64,000 nucleotides of DNA from Dehalococcoidia bacterium (lineage in GTDB: Bacteria > Chloroflexota > Dehalococcoidia > Lucifugimonadales > JAAXIE01), in assembly GCA_965248385.1 (NCBI GenBank), contig CBDFIZ010000002.1, positions 949,904-1,013,903 on the forward strand, in the 5' to 3' direction. The position numbers were made by a program, and so were the translations under genes. Positions 9,385 to 62,630 of the stretch are shown here, one piece after another. The notes below the pieces were generated by a model. It saw only the letters and a program-made list of their open reading frames with translations, was not told the origin of the DNA and made no database searches. The first letter of the stretch is position 1, and every line of letters starts with the position of its first letter.

Positions 9385-9525
9385 CTAGGCCTTGCCTATG
9401 CGGAATACCTTAGTCCCACAGGTGGGGCAGGTGCCTTGGGTGGCTGGCCTGCCATTCTTCAATTGCACTTGAGTGGGACCGCTAATCTCACGTTTCGCCC
9501 TACACTTGAAGCAATAAGCTTCCAC
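9385..9525 (-). CDS. DUF5679-type zinc-ribbon mini-protein (46 aa), absent from the ORF track
   Basis: My translation: (V/M)EAYCFKCRAKREISGPTQVQLKNGRPATQGTCPTCGTKVFRIGKA. It has CxxC...CxxC, a GGGAGGA RBS 7 nt upstream of the GTG, and a TTGACA-N16-TAGACT promoter upstream. Confidence 0.75.
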   Translation of the reverse strand: MEAYCFKCRAKREISGPTQVQLKNGRPATQGTCPTCGTKVFRIGKA

Positions 9526-9556
9526 AGACAGTCCTCCCGCTAGAGGTTAGGCTCTA

Positions 9557-9584
9557 AGTCTACGTAGCTATGTAAAGTTGTCAA
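9557..9584 (-). promoter_or_regulatory. sigma70-like promoter of the DUF5679 gene
   Basis: Minus strand TTGACA (9579-9584), 16-nt spacer, TAGACT (9557-9562); the spacer contains ATAGCTACGTAG. Confidence 0.4.
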
Positions 9585-19949: not shown

Positions 19950-20545
19950 TGATACTCGCCCGTTGACAGCGGCCACCCCTCCCCGCTGACCTCAATGCAG
20001 GCAGGGGACTGACCCCTCAGGGGCGCCCCTGCCTTTCTTATTTCAGATCCCTCGAATCAGCGGAATGAGAATGAGCGCGAACGATGGAAATAATGGAATC
20101 TCCCTCCCTCTCTGGAAGGATCCCAGTCCGCTGAAATGCGGTGCAATGCGGCAAGCTGAATCAGGTAGGGCAACGGCAAATGCGGCGTACTACAGATACA
20201 AGAAATTCCCCTCAGCTACGGCCGTTGCCGCATCCCAACTACGCCAGCGACAACACCGGCATCGCACCTCAGCTACGACTCATCCCTTTTGGGCGAGGCA
20301 CTGCCACTGCTGGGAAGCACCGCGTGTCACAGTCTGACCGTATCTAACTAGCTACGAACATGTCACAAATGTCATAGGTCTCAGATAGAATAAACCTGAT
20401 TTTAGCTACGACCAGTGTGACATCCCCAGCTACGGAACGGTCCCAAACTGGAGTTTTGGGCATGCATCATATCCTCACCTCTTCTTGCGCCGCCAGCGGC
20501 AGGCCTACGCAACGGCAGTAGCATCTCCCGCCTTGTGCTACCATT
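19950..20545 (+). ncRNA. structured noncoding locus A of the YYY-AGCTACG family (candidate novel RNA or leader)
   Basis: Promoter box TGATA-N8-TTGACA; 5' hairpin 20000-20033; AGCTACG at 20214, 20271, 20350, 20404 and 20428; two CAGATA-N15-AGCTACG cores with complementary flanks; no frame-conserved ORF. Confidence 0.5.
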
Positions 20546-30352: not shown

Positions 30353-31095
30353 TGACATCAGCCCGTTGACACGGCTGTCCTTCCCCACCTAGGCTCGACA
30401 TATGGCTCCAAAAACGCAATCAGCGAAAACACCCGTAGCAGGGCCGCCAGCAACGGGTGTCGGAAAACCCCTTGCCAATACCCCTTGTAACAACACGCCA
30501 CCGGGCAGACCCACGTGTAGCGGCCACGCCAACCTGCTACCTGCGTGGCCTCTCAATGGTACGTGTGTGTCCCATAAAAGCCCGTTATTTCGTAGCTGGA
30601 TTTACCCAAATGAGACAAATGAGACACATTACAGATACGGAGAATGCGTTTTTAGCTACGACCAGTGTCTCATCTGTACCCTTTCCAGATACGATTCTGG
30701 CCATGTCACTGAGACCAAAACGGTACACCATGTCTCACCCCATACACAGCCTTCCATACCCATGTCGGGCCAAGCGGACCGGATACAACGACGTCACAAA
30801 TGCACAGGCATCAGCTACGAAAACGTGAATTCGTGTGTCAACCCCTTGACTAAAGCAAAGCTGACGCATCGCTGCGCCGGTCCAAATCCCGGTACAATAA
30901 AATGCATACAATTTATGACGGATATAGCATTGGAAGTTAACGAGAGATGCAAAAGACTAGCATTGGAACACCACAAACACCACAAAATGCGAACGTCCAA
31001 GGCCAGTAATGCCGGTTGTCATGCCAAGACCTCCGGCAAAGCAGCAACGGACTCGTGAGAGGGCTAGAGCCTGCCCCGGACCCGGTCCGGGGGGT
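30353..31095 (+). ncRNA. structured noncoding locus B of the YYY-AGCTACG family
   Basis: Promoter box TGACA-N8-TTGACA-N18-TAGGCT; TCGTAGCT (30590) pairs with AGCTACGA (30654); ATGAGACA x2 (30610, 30619) with complements at 30666 and 30731; lower-GC 3' half with further tandem word duplications. Confidence 0.5.
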
Positions 31096-53397: not shown

Positions 53398-54108
53398 CTA
53401 CTGAAAGCCCAAGCCGTGCTCCTTCAAGCTGATAAAGCGCTCACCCTTCCCTATGATAACGTGGTCCACTAGCTCGATGTCCAGCAGTTCGGCTGCTTGG
53501 CGTACATCTGCCGTCATGCTGACGTCTTGTGCGCTAGGCTCCGGGTCGCCCGTGGGGTGATTGTGCACAACCACCATTGCGGGTGCATTCTCCCGGATGG
53601 CTGGCCGCAGCATCTCAGCCACCCGTATGACCGCGGTGTGTACGCTTCCCTTATACGCTTCGTGGACCGACATGACCTCGTTGCGGGTGTTCAGCAGCAC
53701 TACTTTGATGTGCTCCTGGTCCAACGCGCTCATCTCCGGGCCAAGAAGGTTGTACACATCGCGGGGATGGTTGATCAGGGGCTGCTCCTCCCGTACTAGT
53801 GATACTGCTCGTCGCCCCAACTCCAACGCAGCCATTAGTTGGCAAGCCTTGGCCTCGCTGATGCCCTTCTCCCGGGCGAGCTCGGCGAAAGAGGCCTCTC
53901 CCAACCCCTTCAGTCCCTTGAACCGGGAGATGAGCCGGTGGGCCATGGCGATGACGTTCTCGCCCTGCATGCCGGTACGGAGGAGAATGGCCACTAGGTC
54001 GGAGTTGTTCAGCGACTGCGCGCCATAGTGGCGAAGCCTCTCCCGCGGCCGTTCTCCAGCGGGAAGGTCGCGTATCATAGCGGTGTATGGAGGGGCGTCG
54101 TCGTTCAT
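53398..54108 (-). CDS. radC: RadC-like JAB domain protein
   Basis: HhH N-terminus (LSNSDLVAILLRTG) and JAMM motif HNHPTGDPEPSAQD. Confidence 0.9.
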   Translation of the reverse strand: MNDDAPPYTAMIRDLPAGERPRERLRHYGAQSLNNSDLVAILLRTGMQGENVIAMAHRLISRFKGLKGLGEASFAELAREKGISEAKACQLMAALELGRRAVSLVREEQPLINHPRDVYNLLGPEMSALDQEHIKVVLLNTRNEVMSVHEAYKGSVHTAVIRVAEMLRPAIRENAPAMVVVHNHPTGDPEPSAQDVSMTADVRQAAELLDIELVDHVIIGKGERFISLKEHGLGFQ

Positions 54109-54267
54109 GTTGTGTCCGTGCTGCTCCCTATCGTGAGCGCCGAATGTTACCGGTTGGGAGCTTGAGCCGTCAACGGGCTGGTGTCAGTGTCGGTCGGCCA
54201 AAAATGTAGGGGCAACCGCAATGGTCACCCCTACATAAAGTTTTCGGGAGCTTCGGGTCGAGAAGAG

Positions 54268-56707: not shown

Positions 56708-58129
56708 TTACGCGAACTGGAACTCGCGGGTGGCTGCGATTAGCTGGAGCACGGAGCTGACCCGCGCCTCAGCGTGGGATGCGCTCCACTTTAGGTCGCC
56801 GTCATTGGCGGCTTGCTCCACAAGCTCCTTGCGAGTGCCCTCGTCCACATTCAGCGGGCCCATCTGGTCCAAGCAGTTATCCACCAACTGCGCCGGGGTC
56901 ATATCGCCTGCTGACCGCAGTCGCTCGATGATGTCGCGCACGCCGGGCAGGTCAGTGTCGCCGAACCGATCAGACATGAAGTTGATGCGGGCCATGAGCG
57001 AACCGCTGTTGATCCACTCCTCGCCCGTGTGCCATCCCTCCACGCTGGGGGGGTTTAGCAGGTCCTGTCCCATATATGTCGGCTGCATCGACAGGTTGCC
57101 GATGCCCGGGCCGGGGAAGGCGGAGCCGCCGACTGTCCGCAGGGTGTTCACCACGACTTCAGCAGGGCTCTTCACATGGGCGTAACGCACGCTGGCGTCC
57201 TTGAAGAAGTCGGAGTTGAACAGGGTCCGCAGCACGGCCTTCATTTCCAAGCCGGAGTCACGGAAGCTGTTGGCCAGGGTCTCGATGGCCTGCGGGTCTC
57301 GCGGGGCATCGATCTGCCACGCGGGTACCTGCACCTCGTCGGCCACGAAGAAGTTGTACAGATGGCGCGCCACGAAGTGGTGGCATGCCTGCTGCTGCAC
57401 CACGATGTCTAGGATATCCTCGCCGTTGAGCTTGCCGGTGTGACCTAGGAAGGTCTTCTCGTCGTCGTCGTGGTCTTCGGGGCGGTATTCGAACTTCCAA
57501 GGGTAGCGACCGTAGGGCAGGCGGGGAATCTTGTACTCAAAGGTCCAGCCGGTGAAGGCCCGCGATGCCTCGCGCACATCCACCTCGGTATAGTTGCCTA
57601 CACCCATGCTGAACAGCTCCAGCAACTCACGCCCCCAGTTCTCGTTGACGGCTTGGGCGTGGTTCTCGTTCTGGTCCAGCCAGAAAATCATGGCCGGATT
57701 GGTGGCTATGTCCATCAGGATGGAGCGGTAGTTGCCCATGCCGTTGTCCCGGAACATGTCAATCTGCTGGTTCAACTGGTCATAGTTGTCGACCTTGGAG
57801 TTTCCTGTGGCGAACACATGGTGCCAGAAGACGGCCATCTTCTCTTCCAAGGGGCGCTGGGTATTCAGAAGGTGGTACATCCAGTTAACGTTGCCCATGG
57901 GAGGCTGGCCGCCTGCGAGAAGGGCTCCGGGATGGTACCGCAGCATCTCGTATCGGTCGGCTTGGGGTATGTTGTCATCCGGGTTGAGCAACTCCTCTAC
58001 TGTAGCCTCGTAGCCCTTTTCGCAACGGGCTTCGATTTCGCTACGAGTGGCGCCAAACCCGGCGCGTCGCATGAGGTGCGCCATCAGCGCTATGTCATCT
58101 TTGTTGGCCACTTTCCCCTCCTTTCTCAT
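56708..58129 (-). CDS. DUF1800 domain protein
   Basis: HLMRRAGFGATRSEIE... family-like N-terminus. Classic DUF1800-DUF1501 gene pair. Confidence 0.85.
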   Translation of the reverse strand: MRKEGKVANKDDIALMAHLMRRAGFGATRSEIEARCEKGYEATVEELLNPDDNIPQADRYEMLRYHPGALLAGGQPPMGNVNWMYHLLNTQRPLEEKMAVFWHHVFATGNSKVDNYDQLNQQIDMFRDNGMGNYRSILMDIATNPAMIFWLDQNENHAQAVNENWGRELLELFSMGVGNYTEVDVREASRAFTGWTFEYKIPRLPYGRYPWKFEYRPEDHDDDEKTFLGHTGKLNGEDILDIVVQQQACHHFVARHLYNFFVADEVQVPAWQIDAPRDPQAIETLANSFRDSGLEMKAVLRTLFNSDFFKDASVRYAHVKSPAEVVVNTLRTVGGSAFPGPGIGNLSMQPTYMGQDLLNPPSVEGWHTGEEWINSGSLMARINFMSDRFGDTDLPGVRDIIERLRSAGDMTPAQLVDNCLDQMGPLNVDEGTRKELVEQAANDGDLKWSASHAEARVSSVLQLIAATREFQFA

Positions 58130-58201
58130 ATCAGGGGTGATTTGGCTCGGATTCTAGCACCTGGGATGCCACTGGCCAAATTGGGGGTCCACCTGTGGAC
58201 T

Positions 58202-58720
58202 CTATGGAATGGGGTGCACCAACTCGCCGCCGACGGCGTGGCGGGTGGGCACACGCTGGGTCTGGGCGCCCTTGGTCTCCCAGAATAGCTCGGCTATCTG
58301 CTGGGTGGTGGCCAACAGCTGCTCGGCGGCTGCCAGGTCCACCTCTTGGCGGGTGCGCGATGCCAGCTTCATGGCATTCCAGAAGAGGGTATGCACGTCG
58401 GGGTGCTGCTCTAGGTGAGTGGGGTTGAAGTAGTCGCCCCAGAGGATGCGAAGCTCGCGCTTGCACATCTCGGCGTGCTCTTCCTTGGAGGCTATGTACC
58501 GGCCAAGCTTGGCGTCGTGGACCTCCACCTCGTCGGCGGGGGCGTGGGCATCGGGCTTGGGAAGGTCACGAATGAGCTGGTTCATCCGCAGTATGGTGAG
58601 GGCTGCCACTTGGGACTGATGGGGGTCGTAGATGCCACAGGGCACGTCGCAGTGGGCGTGGGCTTCTTCCGGGGTTACCACACGAGCCAAGCTGCGAAGC
58701 GCATGGTAGATTAGTCGCAT
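58202..58720 (-). CDS. sodN: nickel superoxide dismutase precursor
   Basis: Propeptide followed by the Ni-hook HCDVPCGIYDP; GGAGGA RBS. Confidence 0.92.
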   Translation of the reverse strand: MRLIYHALRSLARVVTPEEAHAHCDVPCGIYDPHQSQVAALTILRMNQLIRDLPKPDAHAPADEVEVHDAKLGRYIASKEEHAEMCKRELRILWGDYFNPTHLEQHPDVHTLFWNAMKLASRTRQEVDLAAAEQLLATTQQIAELFWETKGAQTQRVPTRHAVGGELVHPIP

Positions 58721-58799
58721 ATTTCCTCCACGTTAGCTTGATTAGGTTTTGATGGCCTCAAGTGTACCAGAGGGCAAAAAGAGCGGCAATCGAAGGGAC

Positions 58800-59329
58800 A
58801 ACTCGTCACTGTCACAGACTGGCCTCATTTAGATGGCTGTCTCCAGACCTGCCCGTGGATTGAGGGACGCATTTGCACGCAGGTGTGCACGCATGGTGGC
58901 GCCCCGTAGCTGAGGTGAGGCGATGGGCGTGCATGCTGCCTAGCTGGGGTTGCACGGCGTTTGTAGCTGCGGCGAATTTTTTCGTAGCTAATCCCCCTGC
59001 AATCCCTGCAATTGGGTCCTTTGGTGCAGCTAGCGACCAGCTACGACTTTGGATGTGCATCGGCACTGCATGGTGGGGACGGGCGTGGCAGCGGCGGATG
59101 TTGGATTCTCGTGGCGATGCCGTAGCTGCGGTGGGCTGAGGAGGGGCCTGCACCGATTGTTGTCCTTCAGATGGTTGCAGTTTTTGCACGAGGCGTCCTT
59201 CTCAAGTCGAGTTATGGCCGAAGTTGAATCGTAGGGCCAAATGGAAAGCCGGTGCCACCTCGATGGGTTCGTCCCCGGCCTATGGTCATACTAGCCGAAT
59301 GAGTGTTGGGAGACAATGGCCGATTGTCA
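58800..59329 (-). ncRNA. structured noncoding locus D of the YYY-AGCTACG family (minus strand, upstream of sodN)
   Basis: Minus-strand promoter box TGACA-N8-TTGTCT-N17-TAGTAT (59288-59329). Six AGCTAC(G/A)/AGCTAGG copies. Adjacent tandem ATTGCAGGG x2 (58995-59012). TGCGTGCA x2 with a complement flanking AGCTACG (58874-58934). Confidence 0.5.
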
Positions 59330-59457
59330 TGGCTGGGTGGTGGGGTGCAGATTGTGGTTTGCGATAACGATTGATGCTCTGCCGTTGGGCGGGACGAATC
59401 AGAAAGGAAAGCGCAGATCCACTAACGCGATGCACTAGAATGGCGTTGGGTGGTCCT

Positions 59458-59943
59458 ATGCGCCTATCGCTCGTCTCATATCTAATGTCCCTTATCCGCG
59501 CCCGGCGCTTCATAGTGCGCGGCGCGAGTATGGAGCCTGGTTTCCGCGATGGCGACTGCCTGCTGGTAGACCGTGGCGCGTACGGCAGGCGAGTCCCTGC
59601 TCGTCATGAGGCAGTGGTACTGCGTCTGCCTCATGACGAGCAGGCTTATTTGAAGCGTATCGTGGGTTTGCCGGGGGAGTGGGTCCGCTTGGAATCTGAA
59701 GCGGTGATGGTGGACGGCAAGGCGATCCGCGAACCATATCTGGCTGACAGGAGCATACCCCAAGAGTTCGTCGGTCAGGAGTGGTACTTGGGGCCCGATG
59801 ACTACTTGGTGCTGGGTGATACCCGAAGAGATAGTTTCGACAGCCGCAGGTTTGGCCCTGTGAGTGTGGAGCAGCTTGTGGGATCGGTACTGTTCCGCTA
59901 CTGGCCGTCGTCGCGTTGGGGTAGGGGTTCGACCCCTGCCTAA
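59458..59943 (+). CDS. sodX: S26 family signal-peptidase-like Ni-SOD maturation protease
   Basis: GASMEP catalytic Ser motif, LKRIVGLPGE, GDTRRDSFDSR. Start uncertain (59440/59458). Confidence 0.85.
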   Translation: MRLSLVSYLMSLIRARRFIVRGASMEPGFRDGDCLLVDRGAYGRRVPARHEAVVLRLPHDEQAYLKRIVGLPGEWVRLESEAVMVDGKAIREPYLADRSIPQEFVGQEWYLGPDDYLVLGDTRRDSFDSRRFGPVSVEQLVGSVLFRYWPSSRWGRGSTPA

Positions 59944-61729: not shown

Positions 61730-62630
61730 TCTGTAACTCCGAAACCGGCGCCCCACTCTCGATCAATGCTTGGAGACAGCTGGCCGCCACGGCATGGGGG
61801 TCTGGGCTCCCAAAAGCGTAAACTTGAGAAGAATCGTCTTCTCCCCATGCCAAGTAACCAATGAGATGCAGCAGTCCGTCCTGCAGGCGCGCATAAGCGC
61901 CCATAGGTAGCTGGCACCCTCCACCCAGAAGCTCCAAAAGGTGACGCTCGGCAGTTATTTCCTGCCTTGTCGGAGTGTGTTCCAAAGCGGCGACCGCATC
62001 TACGACGCCAGTGTCGTCTGTGCGAGTCTGCACCGCTAGCGCCCCCTGACCTGGGGCGGATACGAACTGTCGCTGTGGGAGGCGCTCAGCGATGTCGCCA
62101 TCGAGACCCAGCCGGTCCATGCCCGCGGCGGCCAACACCGCTCCGTCGTAGTCTTCTCCCTTGGCCTTTCCCAAGCGTGTCTCAACGTTTCCACGCATGG
62201 GAAGCACTTGCAGGTCAGGACGCTGGTTCCTGAGTTGGGAGGCCCTTCGTGGGCTGCTGGTGCCGATGCGCGCCCCCTTGGGAAGCTGCTCCAGTGAGCA
62301 TCCCCAACGGTTGACCAGGACGTCCCGTGGGTCAGCGCGTTGGCAGACCGCGGCTATGGTGAGGCCCTCAGGTGACTGGGTGGGCAGATCCTTGAGGCTG
62401 TGCACTGCTAGGTCCACCTCGCCCCTCAGCAGGGCGTCCTCCAACTCCTTCACGAACATGCCCCGACCCATCCCCGCTAGCGATGCCTCGGGGGAGGCAT
62501 CGGCTTGGGTGCGAACGCGGACGACCTCCACATCCAGACCCGGCGAGAGAGCACGCAGACGCTCCACCACCTCATTGGTCTGGGCCATGGCCAGTCTGCT
62601 GGCCCGGCTACCTACGCGTAAGCTGTTCAT
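61722..62630 (-). CDS. hemC: hydroxymethylbilane synthase
   Basis: LRVGSRASRLAMAQT..., HSLKDLPT, GTSSPRR. Confidence 0.95.
   Translation of the reverse strand: MNSLRVGSRASRLAMAQTNEVVERLRALSPGLDVEVVRVRTQADASPEASLAGMGRGMFVKELEDALLRGEVDLAVHSLKDLPTQSPEGLTIAAVCQRADPRDVLVNRWGCSLEQLPKGARIGTSSPRRASQLRNQRPDLQVLPMRGNVETRLGKAKGEDYDGAVLAAAGMDRLGLDGDIAERLPQRQFVSAPGQGALAVQTRTDDTGVVDAVAALEHTPTRQEITAERHLLELLGGGCQLPMGAYARLQDGLLHLIGYLAWGEDDSSQVYAFGSPDPHAVAASCLQALIESGAPVSELQNG

Follow-up and report, generated by a model that had tools for sequence, protein, structure and literature searches.

In Streptomyces, sodN and sodX are neighbors with a common intergenic region, and sodN, which is under Nur control, has a short 5′ UTR that is targeted by the s-SodF RNA (PMC3919588). 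In the 64,000-nt stretch of Dehalococcoidia DNA analyzed here (the window), the gene for nickel superoxide dismutase, sodN (172 amino acids; positions 58202..58720, minus strand; Pfam Sod_Ni, E = 4e-44), diverges from the gene for the S26-family maturation peptidase, sodX (59458..59943, plus strand; Pfam Peptidase_S26, E = 1e-32). The gap between them is exactly 737 bp if sodX starts at the ATG at 59458, the start codon indicated by homology with the gene call in a close relative, L120. Whereas the regulation of sodN in Streptomyces involves 18 to 19 nt of complementarity at the 5′ end of the mRNA (PMC3919588), the gap here holds a long upstream element, locus D, which a sequence-only reading had assigned to a family of repeats in the window and had interpreted as a possible long leader of sodN. 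The question is therefore whether locus D belongs to sodN or is a copy of a repeat that happens to lie beside it.

A script check found every motif that had been listed for locus D on the minus strand at its coordinates, apart from the coordinate of a match in locus A. The first feature on that strand is a promoter-like box (59288..59329) made up of TGACA (59329-59325), N8, TTGTCT (59316-59311), N17, and TAGTAT (59293-59288); written in full, it is TGACA-ATC-GGCCA-TTGTCT-N17-TAGTAT, and the pattern TGACA-N8-TTGTCT-N17-TAGTAT occurs only once in the window. In the 5′ hairpin module that follows (59247..59280), GGCCGGGG (59280-59273) pairs with CACCGGCT (59254-59247) at seven of eight positions, one G-U included (counted by eye), and the hairpin can be aligned to the one formed by GGCAGGGG/CCCCTGCC at loci A and C. 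Further along are a copy of AGCTACG (59121..59127) in the context CCACCGCAGCTACGG, assigned to direct-repeat family D1, and an 8-bp stem, P1 (58982..59046), in which TCGTAGCT (59046-59039) pairs with AGCTACGA (58989-58982) around two tandem copies of ATTGCAGGG (59012-58995), as in the inverted repeats of the family. The segment 58949..58968 contains AGCTACA (58968-58962) and then CCGTGCAAC (58957-58949), which partners the tandem ATTGCAGGG in a second helix, P2. Next comes AGCTAGG (58939..58945), a mutated AGCTACG that is preceded in the listed order of motifs by AGCTACAAACGCC. The last feature is a partial third unit (58867..58934) comprising ATGCACGC (58934-58927), CATCGCCTCACCTCAGCTACGG (58925-58904), and, at 58894-58867, the tandem ATGCGTGCA-CACC-TGCGTGCA-A-ATGCGT, the complement of which lies at 58927-58934. 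This unit is kept in L120 and its longest consecutive pairing is 7; neither CAGATAC nor a downstream partner was found after 58867. The match of CATCGCCTCACCTCAGCTACGG to CATCGCACCTCAGCTACGA of locus A was confirmed, with the adjustments that the latter starts at 20260 rather than 20261 and that locus D has three extra bases.

The frequency of AGCTACG exceeds chance. The word occurs 23 times in the window versus 5.82 ± 2.58 times in shuffles, its copies being concentrated in a few ORF-poor gaps, and the 530-nt locus D alone has four copies versus ~0.05 expected (Poisson probability of ~2e-7, calculated by hand). We delimit element D as a whole, a non-coding repeat copy read as inserted and present in both the window and L120, to 58796..59339 on the minus strand. 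Its 3′ limit is set by the point at which the homology of other relatives starts, and its 5′ limit is uncertain, between 59335 and 59457.

A complete member of the family is 0.5 to 0.9 kb long, contains three to six AGCTACG words, and consists, in order, of a promoter-like box, a short 5′ hairpin, and one to three core units. Each core unit has the inverted repeat TCGTAGCT...AGCTACGA (P1) around two tandem locus-specific 9-mers (X), and the complement of X (X′) follows the 3′ arm of P1, X and X′ forming P2; the canonical layout is TCGTAGCT, tandem X-X, CAGATAC, ~15 nt, AGCTACGAcc, and X′. Loci A, B, C, and E have in common a 5′ module (box and hairpin) together with one or more core units; locus A has two, and a canonical unit of locus B spans 30580-30685. 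We built an nhmmer profile of the 5′ module from these four loci and a core profile that also drew on the copies in L114 and L056, leaving locus D out of both. The 5′-module profile matched locus D at 59335-59232 (minus strand; E = 0.0039; model positions 5 to 112), a match that includes the box, and the core profile matched it at 59046-58940 (minus strand; E = 0.036, which is marginal), on the same strand and in the same order as in the family. With the canonical core unit found in the L120 orthologue, these matches bear out the earlier assignment of locus D to the family. CAGATAC is absent from the window's copy, and with it a canonical core; because the orthologous element of L120 has a canonical unit, we regard the window's copy as a truncated member.

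The family box follows the pattern TGAYA-N3-GCCCG-TTGACR-N17/18-TAGNNT, of which the box of locus D is a degenerate form, and a relaxed search with this pattern gave six sites in the window versus 0.08 expected. At locus D the box reads toward sodN, and at loci A, B, C, and E and in L056 it likewise faces the downstream gene; members of the family are also upstream of hyuB, a methyltransferase gene, a tRNA-tuf operon, and gatB. The sixth box (54144-54186, minus strand) consists of TGACACCAGCCCGTTGACG, ~18 nt, and TAACAT, with the box match at 54169-54186. This box immediately precedes radC (53398-54108), leaving a short UTR in which there is no long element, and comes after a terminator-like hairpin, so that either the family box also serves as an ordinary promoter or the radC copy is a solo remnant. 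A promoter-like site outside the family, TTGACA-N16-TAGACT with AGCTACG in its spacer (9390-9575, minus strand), lies ahead of a small ORF of the zinc-ribbon type (CxxC...CxxC), in a gap flanked by two convergent genes.

In addition to the five loci in 64 kb, dispersed intergenic copies were present in OZ240229.1 (L056), OZ253586.1 (L114), and the L120 contig. L056 and L114 were the real members among the matches listed in a scan of genome contigs with CAGATAC-N14/15-AGCTACG; the rest were chance matches. The L056 copy, on another Dehalococcoidia chromosome (1900-2790), is a complete member of ~850 nt with the box TTGACA-N18-TATCAT, the 5′ hairpin, and three core units, and it stops ~60 nt short of the next gene's ribosome-binding site. 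A search of sponge DNA runs with the core of locus B gave 19 to 25 partial contigs with a summed depth of ~5 to 15 times that of one copy, which provides a rough picture. A stricter 19-base core pattern yielded six low-GC matches in JGI metagenome contigs, all attributable to chance, and none in viral contigs. Rfam 15 returned nothing for the whole window at the gathering threshold and only chance-level matches (E > 5) for locus D, locus B, and the L120 spacer at E ≤ 10, and our literature search found no paper tying such a repeat to Dehalococcoidia. The family is restricted to a few sponge-associated Dehalococcoidia and is undescribed so far.

The whole of element D folded no better than its shuffles on either strand (z of about −0.1). 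P1, which is TCGTAGCT/AGCTACGA in the window, is TCATAGCT/AGCTATGA in L120, a compensatory change from G-C to A-U, and CCGTAGCT/AGCTACGG in the extra unit of L120, making two compensatory events in total. For P2, 87% of the cells were paired in a gapless alignment of seven canonical units, versus 21 to 53% when the partner was slid, and eight cells had changed on both sides, a number reached by 0 of 500 shuffles. The mean longest consecutive pairing of X with X′ over 13 units was 7.2 for cognate pairs versus 3.9 for noncognate pairs, the window's locus D being the weakest, with 5. The non-Watson-Crick cells of P2 included six G-U and no A-C, and the helix therefore appears to be selected on the strand reading away from the box, which fits RNA. 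P1 and P2 cross (order i < X < v < X′), forming either a pseudoknot or two alternative states, and as a partner of X′ the first tandem copy of X is only slightly inferior to the second.

At locus D itself, P2 in the window pairs AUUGCAGGG with CCGUGCAA apart from a single G-G mismatch. In the X32 strain the sequence is AUUGCACGG, with ATTGCACGG as the entry for the partner region; the pairing there is perfect, both tandem copies having changed together. In L120, AUUGCUCGG pairs with CCGGGCAA through U-G (the feature list gives this helix as ATTGCTCGG/CCGGGCAA). The presence of the same G in both 9-mers of the window and of C in both 9-mers of X32 suggests a concerted change. Since the stems of locus D are still conserved across strains, this copy may not be functionless.

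A search for SodN homologues led to the relatives that we compared, giving seven sodN loci with the window included. The sites of the window and L120 (SodN 99% identical; DNA 89 to 94%) are filled, the same element lying upstream of sodN in both and the 5′ module of L120 being matched at E = 1e-4. Family modules were absent from L121 (SodN 84% identical; ~205 bp to the next gene), L122 (70%; sodX across a 157-bp spacer), L123 (68%; sodX across a spacer of ~300 bp), L130 (~90% over 66% of the query; sodX followed by a brnT/brnA toxin-antitoxin pair), and L131 (93% over 62% of the query; a his gene). The first four of these empty sites thus belong to relatives with SodN identities of 68 to 90% over aligned lengths of 66 to 100% of the query. 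Comparison of sodN-sodX spacers in relatives, which had been put forward as a check on the leader, therefore found the element in L120 only. The divergent arrangement of sodX and sodN, which the sequence-only reading had contrasted with the usual one, is real but is not peculiar to this genome: it recurs in L120, L122, L123, and L130, all of which have the gene order hemD-hemB-sodX<>sodN-DUF1800-DUF1501, with hemC as well in L120, L122, and L123.

The DNA around sodN varies in other ways, and the neighborhood is a hot spot for accessory DNA. In L130 (2340-2916), the brnT/brnA-like pair takes the place of the repeat in the sodX-sodN spacer and ends at the conserved −35 element of sodN; in L122 (2567-3217), a TIR_2-domain gene lies between hemB and sodX; and in L121 (1077-1907), an IS110-family transposase gene lies directly 3′ of sodN. 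Elsewhere in the window, at 62630, the sequence of the X25 strain upstream of hemC is wholly divergent; a close relative therefore either has no locus E or has a different one.

The filled sites also differ from each other. L120 has 183 extra bases, with a junction at 59142..59148 (minus strand) in the alignment and a BLAST break at 59148. This block is a complete canonical core unit, with tandem ATGCGGCAA/ATGCGGCCG, CAGATAC, ..TACGAC, and the complement; the core profile matches it at 3444-3545 of L120 (E = 4.3e-17), and the window's copy is without it. To read the 183-nt difference as a loss in the window lineage rather than a gain in L120 would be an argument from parsimony. Strains ~98% identical to the window in other sponges (DNA runs) have the same spacer, also without the 183-nt core, and several of their differences from the window restore the family consensus. 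At 58940, for example, AGCTAGG gives way to AGCTACG in the strains of X5, X6, X8, X27, and X32, as it does in L120. The other differences between L120 (3047-4000) and the window (58721-59457) are mostly small tandem duplications: a 12-nt ATCGCAAACCAC is present twice upstream of the box, an 11-nt CCAYGGGCAGG is present twice near the 3′ end, and the 9-mer ATTGNNNGG has three copies in L120 versus two in the window.

To see what is transcribed, we used assembled Logan contigs from eight sponge metatranscriptome runs, which are strandless and have imprecise ends. The summed contig depth of sodN was 29 to 178 (28.6 at the lowest), on a contig that also takes in the DUF1800 gene downstream. These deep contigs ended at 58732, at 58750 (two runs), at 58781, or earlier at a strain bubble, and upstream of sodN the depth fell 10- to 80-fold, to between 0 and 5. 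In seven of the eight runs, RNA from element D was present at a depth of 2 to 5 within 58741-59229, which is 2 to 4% of that of sodN and similar to that of sodX, hemB, hemC, gatB, and radC in the same runs, and one weak contig (X27; 58741-59013) bridged the element into the sodN 5′ UTR. There was no RNA contig over 59242-59420 in any of the eight runs. The elements at loci C and E had zero coverage in the same runs, which argues against a uniform carry-over of DNA; part of the weak RNA from element D could still be carried-over DNA.

Two further observations concern sodN itself. Over 57900-58720, the depth of the sodN-DUF1800 contig was ~64 to 180 where it was continuous (X25, X26, and X30), 10 to 40 times that of neighboring housekeeping genes, and we therefore count sodN-DUF1800 among the loci that the symbiont expresses most strongly in situ. 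In X28 and X29, two independent runs from the same study, the end of the sodN contig at 58750 is followed by 20 T (plus strand), so that an oligo(A) run precedes the sense mRNA where the genome reads AAAA (58750-58747). The run could be a library artifact or could reflect slippage of RNA polymerase at a start site in a run of A.

Element D might on this evidence be an independent functional gene for a small or medium RNA, acting as a regulator in trans or as a sponge for a protein that binds AGCUACG, its adjacency to sodN being incidental. Such a gene would account for the promoter-like box of its own, for the helices kept by compensatory change and their G-U asymmetry on the sense strand, for the repeated AGCUACG words (three to six in each element), for the D RNA at the level of neighboring genes, and for the fact that P1 and P2 of this locus still covary among strains. 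We nevertheless consider this reading unlikely, since these runs contained no RNA whatever from the elements at loci C and E, no terminator was found, the window's copy is without a canonical core and has mismatches, the presence of the element differs between close relatives, and there is no global folding signal.

A different idea is that the core unit could represent a structured RNA motif of a new kind, ~100 nt long and made from its own promoter, in which P1 crosses P2 (the latter having two alternative 5′ partners) and which displays an invariant unpaired CAGAUAC and repeated AGCUACG. It would act as a regulatory RNA, for example as a two-state switch or as a protein-binding sponge, and the truncated copy at sodN might still modulate sodN through read-through or promoter occlusion. 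We hold this idea to be doubtful.

The reading that we favor, and regard as likely, is that locus D is a copy of a lineage-restricted, modular, non-coding repeat that lies beside sodN's own promoter and is not a dedicated regulator of sodN. This promoter (58761..58789, minus strand) has the −35 element TTGCCG (58789-58784), a 17-nt spacer ending in TGG (58769-58767), and the −10 element TACACT (58766-58761). The pattern TTGCC-N17-TGnTAmAyT is present ~40 nt upstream of the ATG in seven of seven sodN loci, and, when the 100 nt that precede the ATG are aligned, they show an invariant TTGCC, a 17-nt spacer, and CCTCTG(G/A)TA(C/A)A(C/T)T, that is, an extended −10 promoter. The seven loci with this invariant promoter have four different upstream contexts, and L130 and L131 become homologous to the window at 58795 and 58789, respectively, exactly at the −35 element of sodN. 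Because the promoter is invariant across the seven loci, we conclude that the sodN transcription unit is self-contained and that the DNA upstream of it is interchangeable. A scan of 58600-59600 for consensus promoters and terminators returned no sites, the box and the sodN promoter each scoring 8/12, below the threshold. As for the distance of the locus from sodN, earlier put at about 150 nt, the last motif does lie 147 nt from the ATG, whereas the end then given for the locus, 58800, is only 80 nt away and directly adjoins the −35 element.

The proposal that had raised the question, a long cis-acting 5′ leader of sodN driven from the box, with nickel or oxidative stress controlling read-through, is highly improbable in the light of these results. 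The box does face sodN, weak RNA covers 58741-59229, and the X27 contig bridges into the sodN 5′ UTR; in addition, an imperfect 29-nt inverted repeat (58774-58802 with 59159-59187) overlaps the −35 element of sodN. However, the conserved promoter intervenes between the element and sodN, five relatives keep sodN and this promoter without the element, the element RNA is a few percent of that of sodN, the same family stands upstream of hyuB, gatB, and the other genes named above, and there is neither a terminator-like site in the scanned region nor a match in Rfam. We reject a start of the bulk sodN mRNA at the box in view of the ends of the deep contigs together with the conserved proximal promoter, and the long leader is thus unsupported for the main transcript; a minor isoform that arises by read-through and carries a long leader may exist. 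The sequence-only reading had named as decisive a sodN start downstream of 58800 combined with no transcript over 58800-59280. The first is where the evidence points, and the weak RNA over 58741-59229 departs from the second. One contig end, 58781, lies upstream of the proposed −10 element.

The 29-nt inverted repeat is 72% complementary, with two perfect blocks of 7 bp, joins the 5′ part of element D to the −35 element and spacer of the sodN promoter, and is largely kept in L120; it could be due to chance or to long-range pairing in read-through RNA. It is the sole such pair, and one of its arms lies within the ancestral sodN promoter. A search for repeats over 58740-59460 found no terminal inverted repeats at the ends of element D, and we reject a MITE with terminal inverted repeats. 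We found no transposase and no clear target duplication at locus D; on the sodX side, homology stops inside sodX at 59482, and the 7-nt CAGCCAT occurs near both ends of the element (by eye, and possibly by chance). The label "mobile" for the family is drawn only from presence or absence and from copy number.

That the locus encodes a small protein in the open 125-codon frame of 58812..59189 (minus strand) is effectively refuted: four AGCTAC words do share one phase, with spacings of 138, 21, and 57 nt, and L120 has a stop-free frame of 252 codons, but GC3 is 0.54 versus 0.75 to 0.8 in neighboring genes, Pfam gives no match, the substitutions relative to L120 are distributed 11/17/14 by codon position, and close strains have 1-nt indels at 58828, 58922, and 58977.

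Taken together, these results are best explained by a repeat copy beside an ordinary promoter. In this explanation, element D would have inserted in the variable DNA just upstream of the promoter of sodN, and it is present in one sublineage only. sodN appears to be transcribed mainly from its proximal extended −10 promoter, giving a 5′ UTR of ~30 nt. Transcription of the element itself may begin near 59281, as predicted from the box promoter, and run toward sodN with a little read-through, and the helices of the family would act in RNA of the strand reading away from the box, as the G-U pairs in P2 suggest. The bulk of sodN mRNA probably starts at the proximal promoter, and the element is probably transcribed weakly, from the box. 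The window's copy appears to be decaying, because relative to L120 its core is missing, its box is weaker (TTGTCT for TTGACA), P2 has the G-G mismatch, and one AGCTACG has mutated to AGCTAGG.

For sodN, the implication is an ordinary promoter with a short leader, the long gap being accessory DNA; no nickel or stress riboregulator should therefore be inferred from the gap. For the family, locus D is the clearest natural experiment so far, offering filled and empty sites, a sister allele with a canonical core, compensatory changes in two helices, and RNA evidence in situ, from which we conclude that copies of the family come and go over short time scales and that selection acts on its helices in the strand read from its own promoter. 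The repeat family is a reasonable target in the search for new RNA functions in uncultured sponge symbionts.

Among known systems, the nearest kind of element appears by analogy to be a modular intergenic repeat such as the BOX elements of Streptococcus pneumoniae (boxA-boxB(n)-boxC), a class that also includes the enterobacterial BIMEs. Like these, the A-E family is dispersed, non-coding, confined to intergenic DNA, hairpin forming, and without a transposase of its own, and the number of modules varies among copies and strains, as in the 183-nt core that separates L120 from the window and in the two cores of locus A. Unlike BOX and BIME repeats, members of the A-E family are 0.5 to 0.9 kb long, begin with a promoter-like box of the sigma-70 type that is in every case directed at the gene downstream, and have locus-specific covarying core arms and the crossing helices P1 and P2; they are limited to a few sponge-associated Dehalococcoidia and have no sequence similarity to BOX. 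The Correia elements (CREE/NEMIS) of Neisseria are 100 to 155 bp long and have a TA target duplication as well as clear terminal inverted repeats, whereas no terminal inverted repeats were found at element D. They resemble the family in being intergenic repeats that are able to bring promoters beside genes, that are cotranscribed with their neighbors, and that fold as RNA.
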